Shown one piece after another: positions 2,355 to 30,717 of a DNA stretch of 64,000 bases (positions are counted from its first letter, which is position 1; each line of letters begins with the position of its first letter). The DNA comes from an uncultured Acidimicrobiales bacterium (GTDB lineage: Bacteria > Actinomycetota > Acidimicrobiia > Acidimicrobiales > CAWCAL01), in the NCBI GenBank assembly GCA_963695075.1, contig CAVOFR010000007.1:1680904-1744903 (forward strand), given 5' to 3'. The notes beneath the pieces were generated by a model. That model did no database searches. It was not told where the DNA came from and was given only the letters and a program-made list of their open reading frames with translations. A program made the translations under genes and the position numbers.

Positions 2355-2355
2355 G

Positions 2356-3123: not shown

Positions 3124-3169
3124 CAGGCTTTCTCCTTGCCTTGTCTCGATGTTGTCTTCGGGGCCCGGT

Positions 3170-3619
3170 TCACTGGAGCGAGTTGATCGCGGAAGCGCAC
3201 ATCCACCTCGAATCTTCCCCGGCGATCCGGCCTACCTCTTCGGTCATGAGCTGTCGCAGTCTCGCAACCCCCGGGTCGGCGCTCTGCATGGCGCCGGTGA
3301 GGGACTCACCCAGGACGCGATTGCGCTCCCGCGGGTCGTCGATCGGTCCGGCGTCCACGAGCGTGGCATCGAGCTGTCCGGCGAGCGCGGGCGAGTCGGC
3401 CCGGATCTCCGAAGCGAGGTCGGCCAGACGTGTCTCCAACCGGTCGTTCACCGCGATGTACGGGTCGCCGTGCTCCAGCCGGTCCGCGACCTCGTCGAGG
3501 GCGAGTAGAGCGGCGTCGACCTGTAGTCGGGCGAAGTCGTCGTCGATCGCGGGCAGTACGTGGGTCTCCAGCGAGCGATGGATCGCAGCGAGGATCTCCT
3601 GGGAGTCCAGAAGGATCAT
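3170..3619 (-). CDS. hypothetical protein coupled to the phosphotransferase gene
   Basis: 149-aa acidic helical ORF. Its start overlaps the upstream stop (ATGA at 3616-3619). No family recognised. Confidence 0.65.
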   Translation of the reverse strand: MILLDSQEILAAIHRSLETHVLPAIDDDFARLQVDAALLALDEVADRLEHGDPYIAVNDRLETRLADLASEIRADSPALAGQLDATLVDAGPIDDPRERNRVLGESLTGAMQSADPGVARLRQLMTEEVGRIAGEDSRWMCASAINSLQ

Positions 3620-6104: not shown

Positions 6105-6545
6105 ATGACCAACCCGCACGAGAACGCAAAGGTCCACGTCACCCACGACTTCGCCACATCGGCGGACGAGCTCTGGGGGATCCTGGGCGACTTCAGCAAT
6201 CTGAGCTGGGTGCCGCTCGTTCATCACCACGAGTTCGAGGGTGAGGGCCCCGGCATGCAGCGCCACATGTACATCGACGAGACCACGGCGATCGTCGAGA
6301 GGCTCGAGGCCCTCGATGAGGCGACCAGGACCATCTCGTATTCGATTCCGGTCAACAACCCGCTTCCGATCGCCGACTACTACGCGACGATGACCGTCCA
6401 CGAGAAGGGTTCGGACACCTGCCAGCTCGAGTGGAGCTGCACCTGGTCCGAGCCGGTCGGCATCACCGAGGACGAGGCCGTCGTCGCCATCACCGCGTTC
6501 TACGGAACGGTCATCCCGGGAATCGAAGCGGTGGTCAACGGCTAG
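6105..6545 (+). CDS. SRPBCC (Bet v1 / polyketide-cyclase-like) family protein
   Basis: 146-aa ORF with a pattern typical of SRPBCC ligand-binding proteins. SD AAGGAG lies upstream. TAG stop sits inside CTAG at the repeat boundary. Confidence 0.75.
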   Translation: MTNPHENAKVHVTHDFATSADELWGILGDFSNLSWVPLVHHHEFEGEGPGMQRHMYIDETTAIVERLEALDEATRTISYSIPVNNPLPIADYYATMTVHEKGSDTCQLEWSCTWSEPVGITEDEAVVAITAFYGTVIPGIEAVVNG

Positions 6546-6835
6546 GCGAGTGGTTCCAAGGGGTTGGGTGGGGCCTGATCACAGGAACCGAGCGCGCCGC
6601 GCTCCCCTCTCGCCGAAATCTGGTCCCTCAGCGTCGGTAGCCGACGGCTACGGCCATCCGGTTCGACACTGCGCTGGTCGCCTCGGCCCCGGACAGACGA
6701 ACTGGCGGCCCAGGAGCCCAGAACTGGGTTCTGAGGCCGCGAGTTCGTGTTGACGAGACCTCGCGGGTCGGCTCGTCGCGCCCATCGGCGAACCGCCCGC
6801 CACGAGCGCGCCAACGACCCCTTGGAACCAACCAT
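6546..6835. repeat. MITE-like repeat, copy A (apparently full length)
   Basis: Perfect 13-bp inverted repeats TGGTTCCAAGGGG (6551-6563) and CCCCTTGGAACCA (6818-6830). CTAG flanks both sides (6542-6545, 6836-6839). Positions ~6598-6839 are the reverse complement of 24765-25005 at roughly 90% identity by eye. Confidence 0.8.
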
Positions 6836-6934
6836 CTAGCCGGCTGGGGTGTTCTGCGTCTGACTTCGCCGCGGAGAGTCCACGGGAAAATGACCCGAGT
6901 CTGATCGGCTTCTCGACAACGAGAGGAGCGTCAG

Positions 6935-7165
6935 ATGACCACGATGAGCGAGGGTCGGCGACGACCGAAGATGTTGCCAGCGGAGACGAAGTGGGAGGTC
7001 TCCTTGCAGGTGACCGGCGGCGAGATCAGCCAGGCCGATGCGGCCCGCAAGCGGGGTGTGGATGTGTCGACGATCATCACTATCCGCCGGACGGTGAAGG
7101 ATGCTGCGCTCGCGGCGTTGGGTCGCAAGCCGGGCCGGCCCGCGAAGGAAAGGAACTGGGAGCGC
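6935..7165 (+). mobile_element. truncated IS3-family-like transposase OrfA (N-terminal HTH only)
   Basis: The first ~75 codons (KMLPAETKWEVSLQVTGGEISQADAARKRGVDVSTIITIRRTVKDAALAAL..PGRPAKE) look like an IS3-type OrfA HTH. The rest of the 127-aa ORF is Arg/Gly-rich and not protein-like. No OrfB or catalytic domain follows. Confidence 0.55.
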
Positions 7166-7187
7166 GAAGCCGTGTTCCGCGGCGGCC

Positions 7188-7409
7188 TCAGCCTGCAGGT
7201 GAGGCGGGTTCGTCCGTCGGTCGACCACCCTCGTCGTCGGCGGCCCGGTTGCGGGGGTGGTACTCGCAGGTCAGGCACCGGCGCGCCGCTGAGCGCATGC
7301 GCTCGATCCGGGTGGTGAGCTCGTCGTTCTGACGACGGAGCTCGTCGACCTCGCGACGCAGGCGTTGCAGCCGTCTTTCCTGGGCGATGATGTCCACGAG
7401 CTTCGACAT
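7188..7409 (-). CDS. small coiled-coil hypothetical protein (73 aa)
   Basis: ATG 7409 is preceded by GAGGAG at 5 nt. High GC3. Heptad-like RRLQRLRREVDELRRQNDELTTRIERM is followed by a CLTC motif. Confidence 0.55.
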   Translation of the reverse strand: MSKLVDIIAQERRLQRLRREVDELRRQNDELTTRIERMRSAARRCLTCEYHPRNRAADDEGGRPTDEPASPAG

Positions 7410-7457
7410 GGGTGCTCCTCGCACGCGTCGTTCGGACCCGGGGGAAGGCCACCTTAA

Positions 7458-7477
7458 CTGAAGACGACTAAGTTAGG
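7458..7477. promoter_or_regulatory. AT-rich box (CTGAAG-ACG-ACTAAG, overlapping CTAAGTTAGG)
   Basis: The right half-site ACTAAG matches the boxes at 27261, 28838 and 30718. ACTAAGTTAGG matches the reverse complement of 27256-27266 at 10 of 11 positions. The left half-site is weak. Confidence 0.35.
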
Positions 7478-7488
7478 AGTTGGAGACA

Positions 7489-7519
7489 TTGACGAGCCGC
7501 TAACTGAATGGTCTAAAGT
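7489..7519 (+). promoter_or_regulatory. candidate sigma-70-type promoter giving a leaderless ligase mRNA
   Basis: TTGACG (7489-7494), a 19-nt spacer, then TAAAGT (7514-7519). The GTG start follows 7 nt later at 7527, with no SD in between. Confidence 0.35.
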
Positions 7520-7526
7520 CATCACC

Positions 7527-9203
7527 GTGTCCACGACAACCACCGGCGGTCGGCACGACTTCCCTCGCTTCGACGACGAGTACCGCGACCGGTGGATCGC
7601 CGCCGGAATGTGGCACGACCGGACGCTCCACGACCTCTTCGACGAGACCGTCGCCGCTCGAGGTGAACAGGTGGCGGTGATCACCAGAGACCGGCAGATG
7701 ACCTTCGCCGAGTTCAAGTCGGACGCGGACGCTCTCGCCGCCGGGCTCCTCGGGATCGGCGTCGAGCGAGGCGACATCGTCGCCGTGCAGCTCCCGAACT
7801 GGATCGAGTTCTGCCTACTGCAGATCGCGCTGTCCCGCATCGGGGCCGTGATCCAGCCGACCCATAGCGTCTTCCGGGAGCTCGAGCTCCGATCGCTGCT
7901 CGGATTCTGCGACACCGATCACATCGTCGTGCCCGACACGGTCGAAGGCCACGACTACGCCGGGGCGATCCGCAACATCAGGGCCGATCTCCCCGCACTC
8001 CGGACGATGATCGTGGCCCGGGGCGACCGTCCGGTCCGAGAAGCCGACGCCGAGGCCGGCCTGGACGCGTTGCTCGACGACGGCAAGCGCAACCTGGCGC
8101 GACTCGAGGATGTGACGACCGATCCCGACGACGTCTTCTACCTGAACTTCACGTCGGGCACCGAAGGGAACCCGAAGGGCTTCCTCCACACCCACAACAC
8201 GCTGATCTCCACCTTCACGACGATGTCGCAGGCCCTGGCCAGCCTCGACCCCGGCATGGTCAACCTCACCTGTTCGCCGATGACTCACAGCTTCGGCCAT
8301 TTCACCACCTACCAGTGCGTCCTCGGGGGTATCCCGATGGTCCTCGTCGATCGCTATCGGCCCGGCGACGTGCTGGAGCTGATCCAACGGGACCATGCGA
8401 CGTCGATCTCCGGTACACCGGCCCACCTGATCGGAATCCTCCATCATCCCGACTTCGCCAGTTTCGACACGTCGAGTGTGAAGTCGGTGAGTCTGGGCGG
8501 CGCACGCAGCTCGCCGGAGCTCATCGAGGAGCTCGAGGCCGTCTGGGGCGTGAAGTCGGCCAACACCTACGGCATGGGCGAGAACATCATCCACACCCGC
8601 ACCATGCCATGGGATCCCGAGGACAAGGCCGCCGAGTCGGTCGGCCAGCCCCTGTTCGGCTCCGAGCTGAAGATCGTCGATCCGGACGACCGCACCCGCG
8701 AGCTCGCCGCGGGGGAGGTGGGCGACATCATGTTCCGCGGCCCGACGCTGTTCCTCGCCTACCACAAGCAACCGGAGCTGACGGCGGAGACACGCGACGA
8801 CGACGGGTGGTTCGTCACCGGCGACCGTGGCCACGTCGACGACGAGGGCTACCTGTACTTCGCGGCCCGAGCCAAGGAAGTCATCAATCGGGGCGGCACG
8901 AAGATCTACCCCAAGGTCGTCGAGGAGCGCCTGGCCGGCCACCCCGACATCGAGGATGCGGCCGTGGTCGGCATGCCCGACGAGCGGCTCGGCGAACGGG
9001 TCTGCGCCTATGTGATCACGCGGGGCGGCGCGACCGTCGGCGTCGAGCAGCTCAAGGCCTACTTCGCGGAGCAGCGGGCCTCGAAGTCCCTGGTACCCGA
9101 AGCGGTCGTCGTCGTCGACGACTTCCCCATGACCCCCACCGGCAAGGTGGCCAAAGCCGCGCTGGCCGAACGTGCCCGCCAGGAGCGAGAGGTGAAGCCA
9201 TGA
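7527..9203 (+). CDS. AMP-dependent synthetase/ligase (acyl-CoA or aryl/alicyclic-CoA ligase)
   Basis: Adenylation motifs FTSGTEGNPKG, YGMGE, GWFVTGD and the C-terminal PMTPTGKVAK. Confidence 0.92.
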   Translation: MSTTTTGGRHDFPRFDDEYRDRWIAAGMWHDRTLHDLFDETVAARGEQVAVITRDRQMTFAEFKSDADALAAGLLGIGVERGDIVAVQLPNWIEFCLLQIALSRIGAVIQPTHSVFRELELRSLLGFCDTDHIVVPDTVEGHDYAGAIRNIRADLPALRTMIVARGDRPVREADAEAGLDALLDDGKRNLARLEDVTTDPDDVFYLNFTSGTEGNPKGFLHTHNTLISTFTTMSQALASLDPGMVNLTCSPMTHSFGHFTTYQCVLGGIPMVLVDRYRPGDVLELIQRDHATSISGTPAHLIGILHHPDFASFDTSSVKSVSLGGARSSPELIEELEAVWGVKSANTYGMGENIIHTRTMPWDPEDKAAESVGQPLFGSELKIVDPDDRTRELAAGEVGDIMFRGPTLFLAYHKQPELTAETRDDDGWFVTGDRGHVDDEGYLYFAARAKEVINRGGTKIYPKVVEERLAGHPDIEDAAVVGMPDERLGERVCAYVITRGGATVGVEQLKAYFAEQRASKSLVPEAVVVVDDFPMTPTGKVAKAALAERARQEREVKP

Positions 9204-10117
9204 GAGTCGGCCTCAGTTGGGACTTCGGGGGCGATGACGCCGCGACCACATGGCGGCGCGCCGCCGACGAAGCCGTGGCGGCCGACGGATTCGGCTTCGA
9301 CAGCATCTGGCTCGACGAATCGCGACAGGGCGCCACCGACTGCCCCTCGCCCGGGCTCTGGTTGACCCACCTCGCTCGATTGACGAAGACCGTGCAGCTA
9401 CGGGCGATCCGCCTCGTCACGGGAATGAGCCCGGTGCGGGTGGCCGAGGAGATCGCGGTGCTCGACCTGTTCTCCCGGGGCCGGGCCGGGCTGGCGTTCG
9501 CCGCCGCATCCGGGCAGGGCGTGCCGGCGGGCCGGGTGCACGAGACCCTCGACTTCGTCACCCACGCCTGGTCCGTCGACGAGTTCCGGTATCGCGGCGA
9601 CTTCGTGCGGTTCCCGTCCCACACCCCCGACGACGTCCCCGGCGGGGCGACCATCCCCGGGACCCGTGGCGCCTACCTGCCGCAGTGGGACTGGGGTCCG
9701 GATGCGCCCGACTTCCTGTCGATCACACCCAAGCCGTACAGCACGCGTCCGCCCGTCTACGCCGAGATCACCGACGACGACACCCTCGACTGGGCCGCAG
9801 CCGGCGGGATCTCGCCTCTGGTCCCGGCGCACACACCCACCGACGAGGCCATCGAGCGCCTGGCGCGCTACCGGAACCGGGCCGACGAGGCAGGGCGCCA
9901 TCGGGGCGACGTCGAGCCGGTCGTCGAGCGACACATCGTGATGGACGGCGAGGACGACGAGGTCACCATCGGCGGCGATTCGGCCACGCTCGTCGATGCT
10001 CTCCGGAACCTGGCAGCGCAGACGTCGGTGACCCATCTCGTGTGGCGGAGAAAGGGCAAGGCCGACGGGGACATCTACCGGTTCGCCCGAGAGGTGCAGC
10101 CCATGCTGCAGGCATAG
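9200..10117 (+). CDS. LLM-class (luciferase-like) flavin/F420-dependent oxidoreductase, type A
   Basis: The ATG at 9200 overlaps the ligase stop (ATGA). Starts MRVGLSWDFG; the GFDSIWLDE and FSRGRAGLAFA patterns are typical of LLMs. The track ORF from 8315 is an out-of-context N-terminal extension. Confidence 0.85.
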   Translation: MRVGLSWDFGGDDAATTWRRAADEAVAADGFGFDSIWLDESRQGATDCPSPGLWLTHLARLTKTVQLRAIRLVTGMSPVRVAEEIAVLDLFSRGRAGLAFAAASGQGVPAGRVHETLDFVTHAWSVDEFRYRGDFVRFPSHTPDDVPGGATIPGTRGAYLPQWDWGPDAPDFLSITPKPYSTRPPVYAEITDDDTLDWAAAGGISPLVPAHTPTDEAIERLARYRNRADEAGRHRGDVEPVVERHIVMDGEDDEVTIGGDSATLVDALRNLAAQTSVTHLVWRRKGKADGDIYRFAREVQPMLQA

Positions 10118-10143
10118 GGCGAGCAGAGAACGACAGGAGCAAG

Positions 10144-11136
10144 ATGGAATTCTGGACCGGCGCATTCGGGATCACGAGGATGCGCATGATGCCGAGCGCA
10201 TTGGCCGACGGCTACGACCTCTTCGTCCAGGACGCCGCCAATGCCGAGGCGATGGGGTTCGACGCATACGGCGCGCCGGAGCACCACTTCACCTACGACG
10301 GCTTCCTGCCCTTCCCGCTGCAGGCGCTGGCGGCGGCCGCGGCGAAGACGTCGAAGATCCGTCTCGTGACGGGAGCGATGCTCCAGACCCTCTACGACCC
10401 CCTAGAGGCCGCCGAGCATGCCGCGACGCTCGACGTCCTGTCCGGCGGTCGGGTCGTCCTCGGTCTCGGTATGGGCTATCGGCCGTTCGAGTTCGACGCG
10501 TTCGGCACCGAGAAGCGGACCCGAGGAGCTCGACTGCGCGAAGCGATGGAGGTGATCCGCCTCGCGACGACGGAGGACACCTTCTCCCACCAGGGCAAGC
10601 ACTACGCCTACGACGAGGTGACCCTCCGACCCACACCGGTCCAGCGGCCCATCGACATGTGGTACTGCGGCGGGACCACCGAGTCCGCGGCGCGGCGGGC
10701 CGGGAAGGCGGGCCTGCCGTACTGGCTCGCGAACTCGCCGTACGAGCGGGTCGAGGTCATCGTCGCGGCATACCGCGAGGCGGGCCGCGAAGCGGGCTGG
10801 CCCGAGGAGCGCCTCAAGGTCGCCGCTTTCAAGGACATATTCGTCGGCGAGACGATGGCCGAGGCCGAGATGATGCGCGAAGCGATGATCGAGACCTTCT
10901 ACCGGGAGCACATCCTCGGCTACGGCTACCTCGTCGACGACGACGGTCACCACGTCTACAACCCGACCGAAGACCATCCGATGTATCAGCGCTTCCTGGA
11001 CAGCCTGTTCTGCGGCTCGGTGGACGAGGTCGTCACCGAGCTGAAGCGCTACGAGAGCCTCGGCGTCGAGGCTCTCTTCTTTCCTTCGATCCAGCGCGAG
11101 GTCATCTCGACGCGGATCATGCCCGAATTCAAGTGA
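10144..11136 (+). CDS. LLM-class flavin/F420-dependent oxidoreductase, type B
   Basis: Internal ATG (MEFWTGAFG) 26 bp after the previous stop. Carries GFDAYGAPEHHF and LSGGRVVLGLGMGYRPFEF. Confidence 0.88.
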   Translation: MEFWTGAFGITRMRMMPSALADGYDLFVQDAANAEAMGFDAYGAPEHHFTYDGFLPFPLQALAAAAAKTSKIRLVTGAMLQTLYDPLEAAEHAATLDVLSGGRVVLGLGMGYRPFEFDAFGTEKRTRGARLREAMEVIRLATTEDTFSHQGKHYAYDEVTLRPTPVQRPIDMWYCGGTTESAARRAGKAGLPYWLANSPYERVEVIVAAYREAGREAGWPEERLKVAAFKDIFVGETMAEAEMMREAMIETFYREHILGYGYLVDDDGHHVYNPTEDHPMYQRFLDSLFCGSVDEVVTELKRYESLGVEALFFPSIQREVISTRIMPEFK

Positions 11137-11161
11137 CCACGGACTGACCGGGAGCCAACCC

Positions 11162-12220
11162 ATGGACATCATCGTCGGCCCGTACGGGATGCAGAGCCCC
11201 CACCCGCACCGTCGTCCGCACGTCGATCTGTACGAGGAGCTCATCGTTCACGCGCAGCGGGCCGAAGCGCTCGGCTTCGACGGCATCGCGCTCACCGAGC
11301 ACTCGTTCTGGTACGACGGCTACTGCCCGTCGTTGCTGCCCACTCTCGCCGCGGTCGCTCAGCACACCGAGCGGATCAAGCTCGTCACGGGCGCCCTGTT
11401 GTTGCCCCAGCACGACCCGCTGAAGGTGGCCGAGGAGGCCGCGGTCGTCGACAGCCTGTCGGGCGGACGTCTCGTGCTCGGTATGGGAGCCGGCTATCGG
11501 CCGGAGGAGTTCCTCGGCCACGGAGTTCCCGAGGGCCGCTGGGGCGCCCGCCTCTTCGAGGCCATGGAGGTCGTGCGTCTCGCCCTCACCCACGAGACGT
11601 TCTCGTTCCACGGCGACTTCTACGACTACCAGGACGTGTCGCTCGCGACTCGCCCCGTTCAGTCACCGCCACCCCAGTGGGTCTGCGCTGGCTATGCCGA
11701 CTGGTCGGCCAAGGGATCGGGGCGAAGAGGTTGGCCCTACTGCACGACCGGAGACGTCGAAGGTGGCGGCAAGATCTTCGACCTCTACGAGGAGGCCGCG
11801 GCGGCCGCGGGCCACGACCCCTCGACGACCAGTCGGGGCCTCTTCCGCGACATGCTCGTCATGCCGACCGAGCGCGAAGTCGAAGCCATCGCCGACGAGG
11901 ACTTCTGGACCGCGTTCAACGACCAGTTCCTCGGCTTCGGTTTCCTGAAGCGGATGAATCCCGACGGCGAGCAGATCACGGAGCTCCCGGCCGAGCTCAA
12001 GGACATGTTCGTCTACAGCCCGCGCAACGCGGTGGGAACGCCGGACCAGGTGCGCGAGCAGATGAAGCCCGTCATCGACATGGATCTCGACCTGCTGATC
12101 GTGCGTACGATCTGGGCCAACTTCAACCACGAGAGGGCGTTGAAGACCATGGAGACGTTCGCCCGAGAGGTCATGCCGTACCTCCGAGAAGAGGCCGAAC
12201 GAGTGCGGGAGGCCCGCTGA
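11162..12220 (+). CDS. LLM-class flavin/F420-dependent oxidoreductase, type B-prime
   Basis: Carries GFDGIALTEHSF and LSGGRLVLGMGAGYRPEEF. Clear paralog of 10144-11136. Confidence 0.9.
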   Translation: MDIIVGPYGMQSPHPHRRPHVDLYEELIVHAQRAEALGFDGIALTEHSFWYDGYCPSLLPTLAAVAQHTERIKLVTGALLLPQHDPLKVAEEAAVVDSLSGGRLVLGMGAGYRPEEFLGHGVPEGRWGARLFEAMEVVRLALTHETFSFHGDFYDYQDVSLATRPVQSPPPQWVCAGYADWSAKGSGRRGWPYCTTGDVEGGGKIFDLYEEAAAAAGHDPSTTSRGLFRDMLVMPTEREVEAIADEDFWTAFNDQFLGFGFLKRMNPDGEQITELPAELKDMFVYSPRNAVGTPDQVREQMKPVIDMDLDLLIVRTIWANFNHERALKTMETFAREVMPYLREEAERVREAR

Positions 12221-13305
12221 TGCGTGTCGGACTTCTGTACGGCCTCGGTCCCCGGGACGCCGAAGGCGGCTACGAGACGGCCCTGAGTCAGATCGACGAA
12301 GCCGACCGCCTGGGTCTGGACTTCGTTCTGTTCGAGGAGCACCACGGCCAGCGGGGGTGTCCCGCCGTGGGATCGCTCGTGGCCGCGGCGGCTTCGCGAA
12401 CCAGCGCGATCAGGGTGGGGTCGGCCAACCGCCAGCTCGCGCTCGAATACCCGACCAACGTGGCAGAGGACTTCGCGATCGCGGATCTGATCTCGAGGGG
12501 TCGGGTCGTGTTCGGCGTGTCGCCCGGCGAGCGCAAGGCCGACTTCGATGCGGCCGGCGTCGCCTGGGACGAGAGGGAGGAGCGCTTCCGCGAGGCGGTC
12601 GAGATCGTGCGGATGCTCTGGACCCAGGGTGGGGCCCAGTACATCGGTGAGCACTACCAGTTCCCGCTCGAAGCGCACGGGGAGCCCGGCTGGCGGCGCG
12701 AGCCGTTCGAGGCACCCTTCGTCGACCAGTGGCGCCGCGGCCAGTCCAAGCCCGACTTCCTGGCGATGCTTCCGAGGCCGGTCCAGTGGCCGCACCCACC
12801 GATCTGGGCTACCGGATGGCGACGGGGCACGATCGAGTGGGCCGCCAGCCGTGGACTCGGCCTGCTCTGCTCCCCGCTCGAGACCGATGACGAGGTGAAG
12901 ACCAAGGTCGGCTGGTACGGCGACGCACTCGAGGCCTGCGGGCGCGACCGCACCGAGGTCGACGTCTGCGTGGCTCGCGAGCTCTACCTGGCCGCCGACG
13001 GCGAAGAGGCGCGCGAGCGAGCGTTGCCGGCCATGCGAGACCACCTCGCGGCGGTGCGGGCCGAAGCCAACGAGGATCAGGCCGGCCTGGCCGCGATCGA
13101 CGGCCTCGACGACCGGGCGCTCCTCGATCGTTGCTTTCTCGTTGGCACGCCGACCGAGGTGGTCGAGAGGGTCAAGGCCCTACAGGCCGACGCCGGGGTC
13201 ACCCACCTGGCATGCCGGGTCTGGCTCCCGGGGCGGGACCAATTCGAGGCCCTCGACTGCATCCGGCTCCTGGCATCGCAGGTCCACGCGAGGCTGGTGG
13301 CCTGA
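12220..13305 (+). CDS. LLM-class flavin/F420-dependent oxidoreductase, type A-prime
   Basis: The ATG at 12220 shares one nucleotide with the preceding TGA. Starts MRVGLLYGLG, with GLDFVLFEEHH. Shares the KPDFLAMLPRP-type insertion with 9200-10117. Confidence 0.88.
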   Translation: MRVGLLYGLGPRDAEGGYETALSQIDEADRLGLDFVLFEEHHGQRGCPAVGSLVAAAASRTSAIRVGSANRQLALEYPTNVAEDFAIADLISRGRVVFGVSPGERKADFDAAGVAWDEREERFREAVEIVRMLWTQGGAQYIGEHYQFPLEAHGEPGWRREPFEAPFVDQWRRGQSKPDFLAMLPRPVQWPHPPIWATGWRRGTIEWAASRGLGLLCSPLETDDEVKTKVGWYGDALEACGRDRTEVDVCVARELYLAADGEEARERALPAMRDHLAAVRAEANEDQAGLAAIDGLDDRALLDRCFLVGTPTEVVERVKALQADAGVTHLACRVWLPGRDQFEALDCIRLLASQVHARLVA

Positions 13306-14511
13306 GTGGACCTGCACTTCTCACCAGAGGACGAGGAGTTCCGGGCGTCGCTGCGCTCCTGGCTCGAGGAGAACACCGGCCAGATGGAGGATGCCTCGGG
13401 GGTGATGCGCGGCGCCGGGGCCGCCAACATCATGGACGCGATCCAGATGGCCCGCGACTGGCAGCGGACCCTGTGGGAGGCCGGCTACGTCGGCCTGTCA
13501 TGGCCGAAGGAGTACGGAGGCCAGGACGCGTCGTTCACCGAGCAGGTGATCGCCACCGAGGAGCTCGCCCGGGTGAACACGCCGCCCCTGATCAACACGA
13601 TCGGCCTCTCCATCCTCGGACCGACCTTGATCCGCCATGGCACCGAAGAGCAGCGGCGACGGTTCCTGCCCAGGATCCTCACCGCCGAGGAGCTGTGGTG
13701 CCAGGGATTCAGCGAACCGGAGGCGGGGAGCGACCTGGCCGCGCTCAAGACGCGCGCCGAGATCGACGGCGACGAGTTCGTCGTCAGCGGCCAGAAGGTC
13801 TGGACGAGCCTGGCTCCGATCGCCGATTGGTGCTTCCTCCTGGTTCGGACCGATCCCGATGCCCCCAAGCGAGAGGGCATCAGCTACCTGCTGTGTGACA
13901 TGAAGACGCCCGGCATCGAGGTCAATCCGCTGCGCAACGCGGCCGGCGGCATCCACTTCTCCGAGATGTTCCTCGACGACGTCCGTATCCCCAGCTCGCA
14001 GCTGGTCGGCGACCTCCACGGCGGATGGCAGATCGCACGCACGACGCTCGAGCACGAGCGGAGCGGCCTGTCCAGCGTCCTGGCGCTCGAGCAGAACCTC
14101 TCCCGGCTCCGCCGGACCGCCGGCGATCTGACGCGGGGCGACGAGCGGGTGATCGACGACCCTGCGGTCGGTCGCGAGCTGGCCCAGCTGTGGATCGAGA
14201 TCGAGGGTCTTCGCCACCTCGGGTTCAGGACGCTCAGCAACCAGATCGCCGGTCGACCCCCCGGGGCGAGTGCCTCGGTCGGCAAGCTCTTCGCCGCGCA
14301 CCTGCGGCAGCGCATCACCGAACTGGCCCTGAAGATCGAGGGTCCGCTCGCCCCGGTGGCCAAGAAATCCCCACACGTCGTCGATCGGGGCCGCTGGCAC
14401 GCGGCGTACTTCGATGCCATCGGCCACAGCATCGGCGGCGGCACGAGCGAGATCCAGCGCAACACCATCGCCGAGCGCGTGCTCGGCCTTCCCCGTTCGG
14501 TACAGGACTGA
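13306..14511 (+). CDS. acyl-CoA dehydrogenase
   Basis: GTG start immediately after the upstream stop. Carries WCQGFSEPEAGSD and GGGTSEIQRN (the segment holding the catalytic Glu). Confidence 0.92.
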   Translation: MDLHFSPEDEEFRASLRSWLEENTGQMEDASGVMRGAGAANIMDAIQMARDWQRTLWEAGYVGLSWPKEYGGQDASFTEQVIATEELARVNTPPLINTIGLSILGPTLIRHGTEEQRRRFLPRILTAEELWCQGFSEPEAGSDLAALKTRAEIDGDEFVVSGQKVWTSLAPIADWCFLLVRTDPDAPKREGISYLLCDMKTPGIEVNPLRNAAGGIHFSEMFLDDVRIPSSQLVGDLHGGWQIARTTLEHERSGLSSVLALEQNLSRLRRTAGDLTRGDERVIDDPAVGRELAQLWIEIEGLRHLGFRTLSNQIAGRPPGASASVGKLFAAHLRQRITELALKIEGPLAPVAKKSPHVVDRGRWHAAYFDAIGHSIGGGTSEIQRNTIAERVLGLPRSVQD

Positions 14512-14512
14512 C

Positions 14513-17643: not shown

Positions 17644-18629
17644 GCGATCCAGACACGAGCGACCCGGACACGAGCGACCGGGATGCAGACGAGATCGACC
17701 TCACCGCCTATCCGACGATCGACGTCATGAACCACCTGCTCGAGGTGCGCAGCGGCATGGCCGGGAATCCCTTCGAGTTCCGCGAGTTCCAGATCATGCT
17801 CGAGACCACCTTCAAGCCGATGTTCAACCCCAGCCCGCCGGCCGGAGAAGGCGAGCCGACGAAGAAGAAGCGCAGGGGCGGTGGCATGCTGAGCGGCCAC
17901 GCCACGACCGCCGAGTGCCTGGAGGACATGGATCGGTTCGGCTACAGCCACATCTCGGTATGCGCCACGAAGATGTGGTCGTACTACCACCACCGCGACT
18001 TCATCATGAACTACCCGATCGAGCCGGTCGGTGAGGCCGTGGCCGAGTCGGGCGGCCGCATCATCGGCACGGCCAGTTACGACCCGTTCCGCATCACCGA
18101 CAGCTGCGCCGAGGTCGAGCACGCGGTGAAGGAGCTCGGCTTTCGCTACGTGTGGTTTCACCCCCTGTCCTACGGTCTCGCACCCAACGATCGCCGCTTC
18201 TACCCGCTCTACGCGAAGTGCGCCGAGCTCGACATCCCCGTCGGCTTCCAGGTCGGTCAGTCGGCCGAGGTGCTGCCGTCGGACTGCGGTCGGCCGATGC
18301 TCGCCGACGAGGTGGCCATCGAGTTCCCCGAGTTGCGCATCAACCTGTCGCACACAGGTTGGCCCTGGGTCGACGAATGGTGCTCGATGCTCTGGCGCCA
18401 CCCGAACGTGTACGGCGACATCTCGGCGTACTACCCACACAGCCTCGACGAGCGGCTGGTGCGCTTCATGGACTCGTCGCGGGGTCGCGACAAGGTGCTG
18501 TTCGGAACGAACGGCCTCGGTCTGGAGCGCTGCAAGGCCGAGTTCCTCGAGCTCGAGATCGCCGAGGAGACCAAGCGGGCGGTACTGCACGACAACGCCG
18601 TGCGGTTCTTCGCACTGGAAGACCAATGA
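17640..18629 (+). CDS. amidohydrolase-2 (PF04909-like) metal-dependent hydrolase / lactonase / decarboxylase family
   Basis: ATGA overlap with the upstream stop. The WFHP, INLSHTGWPW and VLFGTN patterns are typical of this family. The N-terminus carries an SDPDT tandem repeat. Confidence 0.82.
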   Translation: MSDPDTSDPDTSDRDADEIDLTAYPTIDVMNHLLEVRSGMAGNPFEFREFQIMLETTFKPMFNPSPPAGEGEPTKKKRRGGGMLSGHATTAECLEDMDRFGYSHISVCATKMWSYYHHRDFIMNYPIEPVGEAVAESGGRIIGTASYDPFRITDSCAEVEHAVKELGFRYVWFHPLSYGLAPNDRRFYPLYAKCAELDIPVGFQVGQSAEVLPSDCGRPMLADEVAIEFPELRINLSHTGWPWVDEWCSMLWRHPNVYGDISAYYPHSLDERLVRFMDSSRGRDKVLFGTNGLGLERCKAEFLELEIAEETKRAVLHDNAVRFFALEDQ

Positions 18630-18656
18630 TCGACTTCGACAAGAAAGGCGTAGACA

Positions 18657-19910
18657 ATGCCGCTTCGTGAGGGAGAAGTTTGGGGGGAGATCACCCAGGC
18701 CAGCCTGGAGCGTCTCCTCGAACGCAAAGGGGTGTCGCGCGAGGAGCGCGGCACGATGTTCCGGCTCAACCTGAGCGAGGAGGAGAAGGCCAAGCATGAG
18801 GACTGGAAGCCGGAGTTCGCCAACTTCGCGGTCACCGAGGAGACCAACGGCCGTCTCGCGCGCGGGATCTCCGACCTGAACCCCCTCTACGTCGACCAGA
18901 ACTACGCCAAGAAGTCGATCTGGGGAGGGATGATCGCCCCGCCGGCGTGTCTGTGCTGGACCGAGACCGTGAACGGCGCCACCGACGGGTTCCCCGGCTG
19001 CCACACGATCTGGCGGGGCGTCGAGTACACGTGGGAGCGGCCCCTGTTCGCGGGGGAGCCCGTGGGTTCGCGCACCTACCTGACCGACGCCGAGATCGTC
19101 GAGAGCGAGTTCGCCGGCGGTGATGCCGCGGTTCAGCGTTACGAGACCGAGGCGTATCTGCTCGACGGCACGTTCCTCGGTTCGTACAGCACCTCGTGGC
19201 ACCGTTTCTCTCGCAAGAAGGCGAAGTCGGCGTCGAAGTACGCCGGTATCGAACGACACGAGTGGACCGATGAAGAGCTCGAGGAGGTGTGGGACGAGTA
19301 CAAGACGCACAACCTCGCCAACCGGCGCGGTGACGATCCGCTGTACCACGAGGATGTCGAGGTCGGCTTCGAGGTGCCCCACATCATCAAGGGTCCGATC
19401 ACCCTGACGAGCAAGATCGCCTTCGAGATGGCCTTCGGCGCCGGCGGTTGGTTCGTCGGTCACGAGCTGGCCATGCAGCTCTGGGAGGCCGCTCCACGGC
19501 TGCCGATCAAGAACGAGGAGGGGGTGCCCGAGCCGCCGGTCGCCATCCACTGGACCAACGAGCGCTGCCAGAACTACCTGGGTATGCCCGGCGCCTACGA
19601 GGCCGGCTTCGAGCGGCTGAACTGGTTCACGCAGCTCCTTATGTCGTGGTTCGGCGATCATGGCATGCTCCGCAACATGAAGCTCGCGTTCAAGGGCTTC
19701 CATTGGCAGGGCGACGCCGTTCGGTTGTTCGCCACCGTCACCGGAAAGCGCATCGAGGGGGAGCGACACCTCGTGGACCTCGAGATCTGGACGATGTCGC
19801 ATCCCCGGGGCGACAGGACCTCGGAGGGATCGGCCGTCGTCGAACTGCCCTCGCGCGAGGCCGGCAACGTGATCTGGACCAGGAGCGACGGGTCCGAAGG
19901 GGAGGCATGA
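18657..19910 (+). CDS. double hot-dog MaoC-like (R)-specific enoyl-CoA hydratase/dehydratase
   Basis: 417 aa. The N-terminal half (DLNPLYVDQNYAKKSIWGGMIAPP) and the C-terminal half (FKGFHWQGDAV..GKRIEGERHLVDLEIW) each look like a hot-dog fold. Confidence 0.8.
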   Translation: MPLREGEVWGEITQASLERLLERKGVSREERGTMFRLNLSEEEKAKHEDWKPEFANFAVTEETNGRLARGISDLNPLYVDQNYAKKSIWGGMIAPPACLCWTETVNGATDGFPGCHTIWRGVEYTWERPLFAGEPVGSRTYLTDAEIVESEFAGGDAAVQRYETEAYLLDGTFLGSYSTSWHRFSRKKAKSASKYAGIERHEWTDEELEEVWDEYKTHNLANRRGDDPLYHEDVEVGFEVPHIIKGPITLTSKIAFEMAFGAGGWFVGHELAMQLWEAAPRLPIKNEEGVPEPPVAIHWTNERCQNYLGMPGAYEAGFERLNWFTQLLMSWFGDHGMLRNMKLAFKGFHWQGDAVRLFATVTGKRIEGERHLVDLEIWTMSHPRGDRTSEGSAVVELPSREAGNVIWTRSDGSEGEA

Positions 19911-22273
19911 TGCCGGGTGCACTCGACGGCCTCCGGGTGGTCGAGCTGGGCAGACAGGTCTCGGCTCCGTTCTGTGCCCGCCTGCTCGCCGATCTGGGCG
20001 CCGACGTGCTCAAGGTCGAGCCACCGGACGGCGAGCCGGCCCGACGGGCCGGACCCTTCGCGGGTGGGGTCGCCGACCCCGAGGAGAGCGGTCTCTTCCA
20101 CTTCGTCAACGCGGGCAAGCGCGGGGCCACCTGTGATCTCGACACGGCCGAGGGTCGCGAGTGGCTGGATCGCATACTCGCCGGTTCGGACGTATTCGTC
20201 GAGAACCTCGATCCCGGTGAGCGGGATCGCTGGGGTGTCGATTTCGCCTCCCTCGAATCCGGGCACCCACATCTCGTCGTCGTGTCGCTGTCGCCCTTCG
20301 GCCGGAGTGGGGAACTGGCCGAGCGGCTCGGGACCGACCTGACCGCGCAGGCCGTGAGCTCGCTGGTGCTCGGGTTGGGTTCGGCCGATCAGCGCCCGCT
20401 GCGCATACCGTGGGATCACGCCGACTACCAGGCGGGCTTCCACGGTTCGGCCGCGGCGCTGTGCGCTCTGCGGGAGCGTCGCCGTTCGGGCCGCGGGCAG
20501 GGTATCGACATCTCGACGGCCCAGGTCATGGGTTACCTGGTCGGCGGCATGCACAACGTCACGGCCAAGAACGGCAACAAGTGGGAGCGGCAGGGGACGC
20601 TCATGGGTGGAGCGCCCTATCCGTCCGGATTCTTCAAGTGCGGCGACGGATTCGTCTGTATCGCATCGACCACGCCGGCGCAGTGGGAGGCGTTCCTCGG
20701 TCTGATGGACAACCCGAAATGGGCCAAGGGCGATGCCCGCAACTCGATCCATCTGGGACTCGTCGACTCCACGCCCGCTCACGGGCACTTCCAGGAATGG
20801 CTGATGACCTACTCGCGCGCCGAGCTCCTCGAGATGGCCGCCGCCGAGAGGATCGTGATGGGCGTCGCGCAGACCGTCGACGAGGTGCTGGCCAGCGAGC
20901 AGTTCGCCTACCGGGGGTTGTGGGCCGATCTCGTCGTCGGCGGCGAGGACGTGCGCATCCCCAAGCCGGGCTACTCGCTGTCGGAGTCACCGACCGAGAT
21001 CGCCGGGCGCGGCCCCGCACTCGCCACCGAGGCGATGACCGGAGAGGTTCCCGAGCCGATCGAGCTCACCATGGCCGAGCGGCCCGACCGGGCGCTCGAG
21101 GGCATCCGCGTGCTCGACTTCGGCTGGAACTGGGCCGGACCGATGGCGGGCCAGCTGCTCGCCGACATGGGGGCCGAGGTCATCCGGGTCGAGACGTCGA
21201 AGCGCCAGGACCTCATGCGGTTCCTCGACTACACGTCGCACTTCTTCTGCCACAACAACCGCTCGAAGATGTCGACCACCATCAACGTGGCGGTCCCGGA
21301 GGGCGCCGCGCTGGTCCTCGAGCTCGCGAAGACGGCAGACATCGTCATGGACAACTTCGCGGCGGGCAAGATGGCCAAGAACGGGCTCGGCTACGACGCA
21401 TTGCACGAGGCGAACCCGGAGCTGGTCGTGGTCTCGATGAGCATGGCCGGCCAGGAGGGTCCACTGCGCGGCATGCGCGGGTTCGCTTCGATCGCCACCG
21501 GCTACTCGGGCCTCGAGCTGATGGTCGGCTATCCCGAAGCCGAGGTCAGCACCGGCCTGCTGCCCTTCGGGCTCGGCGACACCTCGATGTCGGTCCAGGC
21601 CGTCGTGGGCGCGCTCGCCGCACTCGAGCACCGCGACCGCACGGGCGAGGGCCAGTTCGTGGACGTCAGCCAGATCGACTGCTCGGCCGCGACGATGGGT
21701 GAACCGTTGCTCGACTACCAGCTCACCGGCAAGATCGCCGGCCCGCAGGGCAACTCCCATCCGGCGTTCTGCCCGCACGGCCTGTACCCGACTGCGGGCG
21801 AGGACCGCTGGATCGCCGTCGCGGTCCGCGATGGCGGCGAGTGGGAGCGACTGGCCTCGGTCATCGGTCGTGACGACTTGGCAGCCGACGCCGCGCTGGC
21901 GACTCCCGGCGGACGCCGGGAACGTATCGCCGAGATCGATCAGGCGATCGCGGCGTGGACTGCGACCATCGAGCGTGACGACGCCACCGACCGCCTGGTC
22001 GCGGCCAGCGTGCCAGTGGCCGCGGCACTCGAGCTCGAGGAGCGCAACGAGCACCCACACTGGAAGTCCCGGGGCTTCACGGTGTCGCACGACTTCGAGG
22101 GCTTCGACCCCTGCACGATCTACGCCACGCCGTGGTGGTTGACCGCCACGCCGCCCGAGGTCACCCGTCCCACCCCCCGACTCGGCGAGCACAACGACTA
22201 CGTGTACCGCGACCTCCTCGGCCTGCCCGAGGACGAGATCAGGCGACTCACCGACGAGGGCGTCCTTGTCTGA
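19907..22273 (+). CDS. fused tandem family-III CoA-transferase (two CaiB/BaiF-like modules in one polypeptide)
   Basis: The start overlaps the upstream stop (ATGATG). Module 1 begins LDGLRVVELGRQVSAPFCARLLADLGADVLKVEPP. Module 2 begins LEGIRVLDFGWNWAGPMAGQLLADMGAEVIRVET. 788 aa. Confidence 0.88.
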   Translation: MMPGALDGLRVVELGRQVSAPFCARLLADLGADVLKVEPPDGEPARRAGPFAGGVADPEESGLFHFVNAGKRGATCDLDTAEGREWLDRILAGSDVFVENLDPGERDRWGVDFASLESGHPHLVVVSLSPFGRSGELAERLGTDLTAQAVSSLVLGLGSADQRPLRIPWDHADYQAGFHGSAAALCALRERRRSGRGQGIDISTAQVMGYLVGGMHNVTAKNGNKWERQGTLMGGAPYPSGFFKCGDGFVCIASTTPAQWEAFLGLMDNPKWAKGDARNSIHLGLVDSTPAHGHFQEWLMTYSRAELLEMAAAERIVMGVAQTVDEVLASEQFAYRGLWADLVVGGEDVRIPKPGYSLSESPTEIAGRGPALATEAMTGEVPEPIELTMAERPDRALEGIRVLDFGWNWAGPMAGQLLADMGAEVIRVETSKRQDLMRFLDYTSHFFCHNNRSKMSTTINVAVPEGAALVLELAKTADIVMDNFAAGKMAKNGLGYDALHEANPELVVVSMSMAGQEGPLRGMRGFASIATGYSGLELMVGYPEAEVSTGLLPFGLGDTSMSVQAVVGALAALEHRDRTGEGQFVDVSQIDCSAATMGEPLLDYQLTGKIAGPQGNSHPAFCPHGLYPTAGEDRWIAVAVRDGGEWERLASVIGRDDLAADAALATPGGRRERIAEIDQAIAAWTATIERDDATDRLVAASVPVAAALELEERNEHPHWKSRGFTVSHDFEGFDPCTIYATPWWLTATPPEVTRPTPRLGEHNDYVYRDLLGLPEDEIRRLTDEGVLV

Positions 22274-23948
22274 GCCGGACCGCGGCGGGCCCGGGGACGT
22301 GGACGATCAACCGTCGACGTTGTCGAGCCTGCTTCGGCGCAGCGTCGAGTCCCACGGTGATCGCCCCGCGCTCATCACCGAGGAGACGCGGCACACCTAT
22401 CGGGAGCTGGCCGAGCTGGTCGAGCGCTACCAGCGGGCGCTGGTGTCCTGTGGTGTCGGAAAGGGCTCGCACGTCGGTCTGCTCATGGAGAACGATCCCC
22501 ACTGGGTGGCCTTCGCTTTCGCCGCGACCGGCCTGGGTGCGTTGCTCGTTCCCATCAGCACCTTCGTGCGTCGTGACGATCTCGCCTACCAGTTGACCCA
22601 CGCCGACGTCGAGTACCTCTTCATGACATCGCGGTTCCTCGACAACGACTACCTCGGGATGCTCACCGGGATCCTGCCCGCGCTCGAGGAGGCCGAATCC
22701 GGGGGGCTCTACCTTCCCGAGGTCCCGTCATTGCGCCACGTCGTCGTGCGCGGTGCCGAGGACCCACCCTCGGGATGTCGATCGTGGGACGACTTCCTCG
22801 CCCGGGCCGACGAGGTTCCGGCGGCGGTCGTTGCGGGCCTGGAATCCGCTGTCGATCCAGAGGACGCGTGCTACCTGTTGACGACCTCGGGCACCACAGC
22901 CCGACCGAAGGGCGTGTTGCTCTCACACCGTGCCGTCGCGGGCAATGGTGGCCGAATCGGCGACTACCAGGGGTTGGGCACCGATGACGTGGTGTGGTTC
23001 TACTTCCCGCTGTTCTTCTCGGCCGGCTGCGTCAACGTCATGCTGGGTGCCCTCTCGCACGGTGCTGCTCTCATCATCCAGCCGAACCTCGATCCGGCGG
23101 TGACGCTCGAGCTGATCGAGCGGGAGGAAGCGACCACCTGGCACCTGTGGCCCCATCAGCTGCAGCAGCTGCTCGACCATCCCGACTGGAGCACCCGCGA
23201 CCACAGCGGGCTCCACAAGGGCACCGCGCCGTACGACGTGCTGTGCGAGACGCCCCCGGCCGACGGGCTCGGAGGCGTCAACATGTACGGGATGACCGAG
23301 ACCGCCACCGCATTCTCCTGTACCCGAGCCGACGAATCTCTCGATATCCGCATGAGCACCCAGGGGCATCTGCTTCCCGGAAACGAGATCAAGGTCGTCG
23401 ACCCCGAAACGGGCGAGCGTCTGCCCGACGGCCAGCAGGGGGAACTCTGCGTCAGGGGTCCCAGTGTCATGAGCCGCTACTACAAGGTCGACCCGGCCAC
23501 GACCTTCGACTCCGAGGGGTTCTTCCCCACCGGCGACGCCGGCTTCGTCGACGGTGACGGCCGAGTGCACTTCGTCCAGCGGCTGAAGGACGTGATCAAG
23601 ACCGGCGGGATCAACGTGAGCCCGGCCGACATCGAAGGGTCTTTGGCGCGCATCCCGGGTGTCCGCGCCGCCCATGTGTTCGCGCTTCCGGGCGACGACA
23701 AGGGCGAGCTGGTCGGTGTCGCACTCGTGCCCGATGTCGGGGCCACGATCGACGAGGTCGGGGTGAGCGAGTTCTGTCGATCCGAGCTTCCCGGATACAA
23801 GCGGCCGCGAGGTGTGCTCGTGCTCGGCGCGGACGACGTGCCGATGACCGGTACCGGAAAAGTGCAGAAACACGTCCTGCGGGATCGTCTCCGGGCGGCG
23901 ATCGATCAGGGGCTGGGACCGTTCGTCGAGTGGGAAGTCGTCGAGTAG
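22266..23948 (+). CDS. AMP-dependent synthetase/ligase (acyl-CoA synthetase)
   Basis: Carries TSGTTARPKGV, YGMTE, GFFPTGD and PMTGTGKVQK. The TTG start is taken from the track and overlaps the upstream gene by 8 nt, so the exact start is uncertain. Confidence 0.9.
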   Translation: MSEPDRGGPGDVDDQPSTLSSLLRRSVESHGDRPALITEETRHTYRELAELVERYQRALVSCGVGKGSHVGLLMENDPHWVAFAFAATGLGALLVPISTFVRRDDLAYQLTHADVEYLFMTSRFLDNDYLGMLTGILPALEEAESGGLYLPEVPSLRHVVVRGAEDPPSGCRSWDDFLARADEVPAAVVAGLESAVDPEDACYLLTTSGTTARPKGVLLSHRAVAGNGGRIGDYQGLGTDDVVWFYFPLFFSAGCVNVMLGALSHGAALIIQPNLDPAVTLELIEREEATTWHLWPHQLQQLLDHPDWSTRDHSGLHKGTAPYDVLCETPPADGLGGVNMYGMTETATAFSCTRADESLDIRMSTQGHLLPGNEIKVVDPETGERLPDGQQGELCVRGPSVMSRYYKVDPATTFDSEGFFPTGDAGFVDGDGRVHFVQRLKDVIKTGGINVSPADIEGSLARIPGVRAAHVFALPGDDKGELVGVALVPDVGATIDEVGVSEFCRSELPGYKRPRGVLVLGADDVPMTGTGKVQKHVLRDRLRAAIDQGLGPFVEWEVVE

Positions 23949-23955
23949 GAAGCAG

Positions 23956-24768
23956 GTGGTCGAGATGAGCGGATCCGAACAACGCCTCGGAGGCATGGTG
24001 GCCGTCGTGACCGGCGGGGCCAGTGGGATCGGCGAGGGAATCGCACGGAGATTCGTGGCCGAGGGGGCCAACGTCGTCATCGGAGACATCCAGGACGAGG
24101 CGGGCGAGGCGGTCGTCGACGCTCTCGGTGAGCGTGCCGCCTATCGCCGGTGCGACGTGACCGACGAAGGGGAGGTCGCGGCCCTCGTGCAGGCCGCCCC
24201 GGACGAGTTCGGCAGGCTCGACATCATGGTGAACAACGCCGGGGCCATCGGGGCCAGGGGTTCGATCCTCGAGGTGACCGCCGACGAGTGGGATGCGACG
24301 ATCAACCTGTTGTTGCGCAGTGTGTTCCTCGGCATGCGCCACGCGGGGCGCCTTCTCGTCGACCAGGGCGACGGCGGCTCGATCATCAGCACGTCGAGCA
24401 TCGCGGCTCACGCGCCGGGGAACGGGCCTCACGCCTACGGCACCGCCAAGGCGGGTGTCGTCCACCTCACCCAGCGGGTGGCGCTAGAGCTCGGGGAGCA
24501 TCGGATCCGGGTGAACGCGATCTGCCCCGGTGGGATCGTGACGCCCCTGGTGCTCGGGGCGGTCGGTCTGGGTCCCGAGGCGACCGGCGTCATGGAGGAT
24601 GCCGCCGCGGCCATGCGACCGTATCCCCGAGCAGGCAGGACCGAGGACGTCGCGGCGACCGCGGCCTGGCTGGCGAGCCGAGACGGCGAGTTCGTGACCG
24701 GTCAGGCGATCACGGTCGACGGCGGCGAGAGCGTCGGCCCCAAGTGGTCCGACCAGATGGTCCACTAG
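23956..24768 (+). CDS. short-chain dehydrogenase/reductase (SDR)
   Basis: Carries TGGASGIGEG, NNAG and YGTAK. The TAG stop lies inside the CTAG that begins repeat copy B. The start may instead be the ATG at 23965. Confidence 0.9.
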   Translation: MVEMSGSEQRLGGMVAVVTGGASGIGEGIARRFVAEGANVVIGDIQDEAGEAVVDALGERAAYRRCDVTDEGEVAALVQAAPDEFGRLDIMVNNAGAIGARGSILEVTADEWDATINLLLRSVFLGMRHAGRLLVDQGDGGSIISTSSIAAHAPGNGPHAYGTAKAGVVHLTQRVALELGEHRIRVNAICPGGIVTPLVLGAVGLGPEATGVMEDAAAAMRPYPRAGRTEDVAATAAWLASRDGEFVTGQAITVDGGESVGPKWSDQMVH

Positions 24769-25005
24769 ATGATTGGTTCCAAGGGGTCGTTGGCGCGCTC
24801 GTGGGGGGCGGTTCGTTGATAGGCGCGACAAGCCGACCCGCGGGGTCTCGTCAACACGAACTCGCGGCCTCAGAACCCAGTTCTGGGCTCCTGGGCCGCC
24901 AGTTCGTCTGTCCGGGGCCGAGGCGACCAGTGCGGTATCGAACTGGGTGGCCGTAGCCGTCGGATACCGACGCTGAGGGACCAGATTTCGGCGACAGGGG
25001 AGCGC
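24765..25005. repeat. MITE-like repeat, copy B (inverted relative to copy A, distal end missing)
   Basis: Reverse complement of ~6598-6839 with about 20 scattered mismatches. Starts CTAGATGATTGGTTCCAAGGGG. Lacks the ~50 bp that carry the second 13-bp terminal repeat. Confidence 0.8.
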
Positions 25006-25012
25006 AGCCTCT

Positions 25013-25414
25013 CTACTCGAACCAGAGGGCGTCGAGTACGTGGTGCGAGATCCGCCATCCGTCGGCGGTTCGTACGAGCTCTTCCCGGTAGACACCACCG
25101 ACGACGAAGTTGCCGTCGGGGAGCAGGTGCGTGGCGATCAGATTCGCCCGGAGGTGAGCCGTGTCTCCCGACACCTCGACCTCGCAGTTGCTGATCGAGT
25201 GGTGGGTGCGGTCGTACACGGAGAGGGCGGCACGCACGGCCTCCTCGATGGCGGTGTAGCCCTCCAGCTGTGGTCCCCCGGCGAGGATGCCGGTGGCCCC
25301 AGGGGTGAAGCAGGTCTCGAGGCGAGCCCAGTCCTTCTCGTCGAGGCTGCTGCCATAGCGGAACAGCACATCGGCGACGTCGGCTCGGTCCCGCAGCGTC
25401 AGGTTCTCGTCCAC
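25013..25414 (-). CDS. SnoaL-like / NTF2-fold protein
   Basis: 133 aa. The pattern DVLFRYGSSLDEKDWARLETCF...GGVYREELVRTADGWRI is typical of SnoaL_4 proteins. Confidence 0.8.
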   Translation of the reverse strand: MDENLTLRDRADVADVLFRYGSSLDEKDWARLETCFTPGATGILAGGPQLEGYTAIEEAVRAALSVYDRTHHSISNCEVEVSGDTAHLRANLIATHLLPDGNFVVGGVYREELVRTADGWRISHHVLDALWFE

Positions 25415-26183: not shown

Positions 26184-26203
26184 TGCCTGCTCCTTCGGTC
26201 GGT

Positions 26204-30558: not shown

Positions 30559-30717
30559 TGTGCTCCCCCGTGCAATCGGCAACCAGACAGATACTCGCAC
30601 ACGGTCGACGGGCCTGCCGGGTTTCCGTCGCGGCGCGGGCCGGGTCCGCGGGAACGTCGGACTCGGCGCCGCCGCTGGACAGGTGATCGGCACCGTGTCA
30701 TGGTGACAACCCGGTAA

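Follow-up and report, generated by a model that had tools for sequence, protein, structure and literature searches.

Here we analyzed two inverted repeats, copy A and copy B, which lie on both sides of an 18-kb catabolic operon in an uncultured Acidimicrobiales bacterium; the window, i.e. the whole stretch of DNA that was analyzed, covers 64,000 nucleotides of contig CAVOFR010000007.1 (assembly GCA_963695075.1). Both copies are very probably miniature inverted-repeat transposable elements (MITEs) of the IS982 type, which were inserted independently of each other at CTAG sites beside an operon that had long been resident in the chromosome. The pair is not a transposon and was not the vehicle by which the operon arrived, and its sole structural consequence is to provide a potential substrate for homologous recombination.

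Copy A (6542-6839, plus strand) is a complete MITE of 298 bp having CTAG at both edges (6542-6545 and 6836-6839), and its left end is IRL-like and its right end IRR-like (left and right inverted repeat) relative to the parent IS982-family insertion sequence (IS). The left terminal inverted repeat, CTAGGCGAGTGGTTCCAAGGGGTT, occupies 6542-6565 on the plus strand and the right one, which reads CTAGATGGTTGGTTCCAAGGGGTCG on the minus strand, occupies 6815-6839; the latter is identical in type to the end that lies 3′ of the transposase gene in IS982-family IS. The two terminal repeats were found as 6539-6564 and 6817-6842, 26 nt with 85% identity, and they have a perfect 14-nt core, TGGTTCCAAGGGGT, at 6551-6564 with its reverse complement at 6817-6830. 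This core occurs three times in the window as compared with 0.3 occurrences expected by chance (up to two mismatches), the third being the single core of copy B at 24774-24787. Copy B (24765-25008, minus strand, 244 bp) is truncated at the IRL side, being without the first 54 nt of copy A including the left inverted repeat, and it retains the right inverted repeat and CTAG at 24765-24789.

The arms 6596-6839 and 24765-25008 were reported by the repeat finder as 94% complementary over 244 nt, and they are the sole long inverted pair reported in the window. Direct counting gave 15 substitutions (12 transitions and 3 transversions) and no indels, i.e. 93.9% identity over the 244 nt. The original prediction, made from the sequence of this stretch, had described the copies as reverse complements free of indels, which stands, and had estimated by eye about 90% identity and about 20 substitutions, which the count replaces. 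Its description of copy A as complete with perfect inverted repeats and flanking CTAG, of copy B as distally truncated with loss of the second core, and of the conserved ends as facing the enclosed 18 kb was borne out, the intact ends being those at 6839 and 24765. A run of 87 nt (6674-6760) is free of substitutions between the copies, with p ~0.017 under random placement of the 15 substitutions, and could reflect either constraint or a gene-conversion tract between the copies. A central imperfect palindrome with 25-nt arms (6697-6748) lies within this identical run.

The affiliation of the element was searched through its ends. A 20-mer of the right end was scanned as an exact pattern against 185,579 representative genomes and two of them matched. 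In the first (L001), an Ilumatobacteraceae metagenome-assembled genome (MAG), the identity extends to 29 of 30 nt including the CTAG and stands directly after the stop of a truncated open reading frame (ORF), which matches the C-terminus of the NCBIfam IS982 transposase. The second (L002), a Clostridiales MAG, has the 20-mer within a coding region and was rejected as a chance match. Homologues of the L001 fragment are abundant in Acidimicrobiia and in other actinobacterial metagenomes, and several of them are named "IS982 family transposase".

A scan of metagenomes with the terminal 23-mer CTAGATGRTTGGYTCCAAGGGGT gave 107 loci. Elements with paired and opposed ends fall into two size classes, a long one with 45 members (1031-1085 bp) and a short one with 11 (190-601 bp), and copy A has 298 bp. 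CTAG stands at both edges in 54 of the 57 paired elements when copy A is counted, and in 53 of the 56 others, and no additional flanking direct repeat is visible in the paired elements. The full-length elements encode an intact protein of 303-305 aa, and this transposase scores 178.7 bits on the NF033520 "IS982 family transposase" model (cutoff 130) and far lower on IS5 and IS4 models. On the 5′ side of the transposase gene the terminal sequence is typically CTAGAYGAKTAGTTCCAAGGGRTT, and on its 3′ side it is CTAGATGRTTGGTTCCAAGGGGTC; the right end of copy A is of the 3′ type, and the left end of copy A most resembles the 5′ end of L078 and L003. Compared with the L078 IS, copy A is identical at 24 of 27 nt at the left end and at 23 of 23 nt at the right end.

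The interior of the element is a different matter, as blastn and nhmmer comparisons with 111 fetched IS and MITE loci and with an IS profile gave matches only over the terminal ~25-45 nt. Among the short derivatives, those at L024, L025 and L069 are plain internal-deletion copies of the IS, and the others share only the termini, like copy A. The same CTAGATGRT... termini bound IS982-family IS annotated by PGAP on plasmids of Streptomyces antimycoticus and Rhodococcus ruber, with transposases that share 63% and 54% identity with that of the metagenomic elements. Since these plasmid IS share the ends, the CTAG-bounded IS982 clade is widespread in Actinomycetota. Degraded copies of the clade appear to be common in Acidimicrobiia MAGs. 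The L003 copy (2313-3395 of its locus) was seen to carry several frameshifts, and many database proteins of the clade (P0002-P0120) are fragments of about 60-125 aa covering the C-terminus.

The repeat unit is thus a MITE with IS982-family termini and no transposase gene, and the view of it as a non-autonomous, MITE-like transposable element holds. It had also been proposed that the unit is non-coding despite the 67-aa ORFs which are present in both copies (6628-6831 on the minus strand and 24773-24976 on the plus strand), and this is supported. The pseudo-ORFs of the element have a GC content at the third codon position (GC3) of 0.63-0.71 as compared with 0.84-0.92 in the neighbouring genes, and the codon-position bias in GC is absent from them. 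Neither Pfam nor NCBIfam gave a match for the ORFs of the element, and tblastn gave no similarity of the element to the IS982 transposase. Exact look-up of four pseudo-ORFs in the protein collection was negative, and a phmmer search with a 97-aa pseudo-ORF among 1.84 billion representative proteins returned 0 matches.

The history of the locus was followed in three Acidimicrobiia assemblies, GCA_027494115.1, a Logan contig and ERZ25039603 (loci L112-L117), which are the closest relatives available, with about 80% protein identity to the window. At the right junction all three have the arrangement of the window, with CoA-transferase, AMP-binding and SDR genes on the plus strand followed by SnoaL_4, SDR and a 340-aa gene on the minus strand; the spacer between SDR and SnoaL_4 is 34, 34 and 17 nt in the relatives versus 244 nt in the window. 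At the left junction, too, all three agree with the window, having an APH gene (minus), then Polyketide_cyc2 (plus), a small ORF (minus), an AMP-binding gene (plus) and luciferase-like genes. From the Polyketide_cyc2 stop to the AMP-binding start there are 259 or 247 nt in the relatives versus 981 nt in the window, and the ~680 extra nt correspond to copy A together with an IS remnant of ~350 nt.

The repeats are absent from both junctions in the three relatives, and gene order and orientation are identical. The operon and both of its flanks are ancestral at this locus, in the orientation of the window. As the three relatives have the same synteny without the repeats, it follows that each copy entered this ancestral locus later and independently, at an intergenic position of its own. 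With respect to mobility, the element is present at two different sites and both sites are empty in the three relatives; no exact empty site was found among the fetched metagenome loci.

The insertion sites are marked by a tetranucleotide that is very rare in this high-GC genome. CTAG was observed 7 times in the window as compared with 190 occurrences expected from base composition and 48 by a second-order estimate. Element edges account for three of these seven, and the remaining, non-element sites lie at 10402, 24484, 28834 and 29746. After removal of duplications there are six original CTAG sites, namely three TAG stops, one intergenic and two intragenic sites; the CTAG-borne stops are those of Polyketide_cyc2, of SDR and of a minus-strand gene at 29746-30726 (stop at 29746). 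The Polyketide_cyc2 stop (6543-6545) lies within the left CTAG of copy A and the SDR stop (24766-24768) within the CTAG of copy B. The element edges are found at TAG stops because CTAG is chosen as target and is extremely scarce. Three TAG stops had originally been placed at element edges, and this is correct for the two just given, which lie inside an edge CTAG; the third, the SnoaL stop at 25013-25015, is not an element edge, being 4 nt beyond the truncated, non-CTAG side of copy B. In L117 the Polyketide_cyc2 orthologue is likewise 146 aa long with a TAG stop; the TAG is accordingly older than the insertion, and at least part of the CTAG is target sequence. Of 121 element ends in the metagenome loci, at least 20 have a CTAG that doubles as the stop of a long coding-like ORF. 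At L007, L024 and L069 an IS982-family element or a short derivative of one stands exactly between convergent coding-like ORFs and each CTAG copy is the stop of one of them, a pattern suggestive of an insertion whose target CTAG belonged to two overlapping stops at once.

Based on these data the following course of events may be proposed. A full-length IS of the L078 type would provide an IS982-family DDE transposase in trans, and this enzyme would bind the ~24-nt termini (CTAG-N5-TGGTTCCAAGGGG); transposition in trans is suggested because the termini are shared with transposase-bearing IS. Insertion would take place at the tetranucleotide CTAG and would leave CTAG at both edges, through duplication of either the 4 bp of CTAG or the 2 bp of TA. 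The permissible CTAG targets would be few and concentrated at gene ends, so insertions would land exactly there. Copy A would have entered the CTAG at the Polyketide_cyc2 stop and copy B, independently, the CTAG at the SDR stop, with the operon lying between them by happenstance. Later, the outer 54 nt of copy B would have disappeared along with the neighbouring spacer and the two final SnoaL codons, so that copy B would now be immobile.

The SnoaL_4 gene that borders copy B externally (25013-25414, minus strand) has a C-terminus two codons shorter than its closest orthologues, ending in WFE and stop versus WFEGP and stop. A single deletion of ~90 nt would have removed the left end of copy B, the old spacer and the SnoaL terminus, which fits the shorter protein. 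In the closest relative the 34-nt SDR-SnoaL spacer (L112 10805-10838 and L113 5827-5860) includes a stretch, GCGCTCCCCGATCGCC, resembling the outer edge of copy B, GCGCTCCCCTGTCGCC. The resemblance covers 16 nt, which lie almost equally far from the SnoaL stop in both, but it is not significant (shuffling p 0.03-0.06, with 2% of L112 windows scoring equally) and was set aside; coincidence or a relic of great age could account for it. In the Logan sample ERR12037370, a contig of 1,333 bp encodes an identical SnoaL protein and ends 48 nt past its stop. The contig end coincides with the end of a 30-nt stretch common to copies A and B, where an assembly graph with k=31 would branch, and such a break fits the presence of both copies in that sample.

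Several results weigh against the reading of two independently inserted MITE copies. Only two copies of the element are known, both of them in the window. A blastn search of the plasmid collection with the 304-bp unit gave no match, the exact 20-mer of the element end gave no further copy of the interior in the 185,579 representative genomes, and a scan of JGI metagenomes for complete elements (both 13-nt cores 239-269 nt apart) gave 0 matches. An interior 20-mer likewise gave 0 matches in viral contigs, and the interior is absent as a called ORF from the protein collection. There is no IS982 transposase gene within the 64-kb window. The relatives that represent the empty site are only ~80% identical at the protein level and are not exact pre-insertion sequences. 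Transposition itself, the binding of the transposase to the ends and the size of the duplication are inferred.

A wider proposal, which we regard as improbable, is that the CTAG-specific IS982 clade and its MITEs use TAG stops of high-GC genomes as "safe-haven" landing pads, where each insertion would restore the stop, and that the two copies in addition recombine with each other through gene conversion and an occasional 18-kb inversion. The more restricted explanation, that RecA-type recombination between the 244-bp repeats flips the operon as a regulatory switch or as a neutral polymorphism, is likewise unlikely. The length and identity of the arms would allow it, and the 87-nt identical run, which exceeds the expectation for 15 random substitutions, might have arisen by gene conversion. 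The window, however, shows the ancestral orientation found in all three relatives; the segment includes the promoter region as well as the small divergent ORF, so that expression would not obviously be altered by a flip; and two random insertions are inverted in half of the cases.

A second alternative is that the unit is a structured RNA or a regulatory module, such as a terminator or an insulator at gene ends, and not a mobile element. Copy A folds far more strongly than shuffled controls (z -5.8 and -5.2 on the two strands), with pairing between the two terminal inverted repeats and a hairpin in the centre (6697-6748) as the dominant features of the fold; this hairpin falls within the invariant 87-nt run and both copies stand directly after stop codons. 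Strong folding of both strands is expected for any MITE, given its inverted repeats and palindromes. Over the whole window Rfam 15 gave no family at the gathering score; with the limit relaxed to E<=1, the region 6400-7600 gave a single weak and unrelated match outside the unit, so no known family accounts for the unit. Promoter and terminator scans at both copies detected no promoter-like or terminator-like site. Comparison of copy A with copy B gave 0 compensatory pairs among the 15 substitutions, a count that has no statistical power as it is based on two sequences. Together with termini that are those of transposase-bearing IS, this makes the RNA explanation, which had been raised as the alternative, very unlikely.

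The original prediction had further considered a composite transposon, in which the two copies are the arms that carried the 18-kb operon into the locus. Two related inverted copies do flank the operon and an additional IS remnant is present at one junction. Against this, the three relatives share the flanks, the operon, its order and its orientation without the repeats. GC content is equal within and outside the segment (0.679 in the operon block, 0.675 and 0.676 in the flanks). The two intact ends beside the operon are both IRR (3′-type), and from each of them the element interior extends outwards, away from the operon; such a structure also requires the outer end of copy B, which is missing. 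A mobile operon can therefore be given hardly any credence. IS630 elements insert at TA, often within CTAG, and the CTAG at both edges had accordingly suggested a MITE derived from IS630/Tc1-mariner targeting TA within CTAG, but this is almost certainly wrong, as the same termini bound the 45 full-length elements encoding an IS982-family transposase and no IS630-type transposase is tied to these ends at any locus examined.

An IS982-derived MITE is a kind of element that is already known. In the Cardinium endosymbiont cOegib, a MITE of ~240 bp derived from ISCca4 (IS982 family) has been described (PMC9769881). Like the element of the window it is short (the two being ~240-300 bp), is without transposase, has IS982-like inverted repeats and is presumed to be mobilised in trans. 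It differs in belonging to a Bacteroidota endosymbiont and not to Acidimicrobiia, in its unrelated sequence and in being highly multi-copy, whereas the window element was seen in two copies; a further difference is that homology of the window element to its parent IS is confined to ~25-45 nt at the ends.

The actinobacterial IS982 IS (L078/L017-type, S. antimycoticus NZ_CP108859.1 and R. ruber pmega_1) have the same terminal repeats and edge CTAG as the window element, but they are ~1,000-1,085 bp long and encode a DDE transposase of 296-305 aa, whereas the window element is a non-coding unit of 298 bp. MITEs of the IS630/Tc1 type (RUP, Correia-like; TA duplication) are similar in being small, in having inverted repeats and a palindromic target containing TA, and in their intergenic position near gene ends; the termini of the window element belong instead to IS982, which is related to IS5 and IS4, and there is no IS630 partner. 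Composite transposons of the Tn5/Tn10 type likewise have two inverted mobile-element copies around a block of genes. In the window, however, one arm is without its outer end, the inward intact ends are of the wrong polarity and the enclosed block is ancestral.

The IS remnant just inside copy A (6840-7190, plus strand) is absent in the relatives. It is of the rve type (IS3/IS481-like), and only the N-terminal helix-turn-helix (HTH) part of its orfA is recognisable, from 6935 to ~7170. The ORF at 6935 is 44% identical to an HTH orfA which precedes an rve "integrase core" ORF in a multi-copy element of Mycobacterium intracellulare plasmids, and that partner ORF has its best scores on the IS3 and IS481 models, both below cutoff. 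The truncated IS3-like orfA noticed at this position is thus confirmed as an IS3/IS481-like remnant.

Next to it lies a short and conserved coiled-coil ORF of 73 aa (MSKLVDIIAQERRLQRLRREVDELRRQNDELTTRIERMRSAARRCLTCEY..., 7188-7409, minus strand, GC3 0.81), divergent from the first gene of the operon. Orthologues are found at the same position in L115, L116 and L117, with 61 aa in L115 (9752-9937) and 39 aa in L117 (9767-9886), and the version of the window has a 3′ extension where the IS3/IS481-like remnant abuts. The ORF belongs to the ancestral intergenic region and not to the mobile elements, and its product is possibly a small regulator or a coiled-coil protein. Upstream of the AMP-binding gene an AT-richer stretch (7430-7525) has a motif repeated twice, TAACTGAAGACGACTAAGTTA ... 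CTAACTGAATGGTCTAAAGTCA, conserved at the same position in L117 and L115; the stretch probably acts as operator or promoter for the operon.

The operon itself (7527-24768, plus strand), ancestral and syntenic in the relatives, comprises two acyl-CoA synthetases, several luciferase-like monooxygenases, two acyl-CoA dehydrogenases and an OYE-like reductase region, together with Amidohydro_2, a MaoC-like dehydratase, CoA-transferase III and SDR. On the outer side of copy A is the Polyketide_cyc2 gene (6105-6545, plus strand), the TAG stop of which lies within the CTAG target. Two paralogous SDR genes (1611-2354 and 25425-26216, minus strand), 23.8 kb apart, give rise to the direct-repeat families D2 and D3, which have 78-85% identity over 46-113 nt and are unrelated to the MITE.

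The operon should accordingly be counted as part of the core chromosome in this lineage of Acidimicrobiia, and not as a mobile or recently acquired island. The analysis also documents an IS982-derived MITE in a poorly studied and largely uncultured class of Actinomycetota, and a clade of actinobacterial IS982 elements which is bounded by CTAG and frequently placed exactly on TAG stops, because CTAG is otherwise nearly absent from these genomes. If the copies did serve as safe-haven insertions and as a recombining pair, structural polymorphism in the orientation of the operon would be expected in natural populations of Acidimicrobiia. The CTAG/TAG pattern will be useful for the annotation of IS and MITEs in these genomes and for explaining assembly breaks at such sites.

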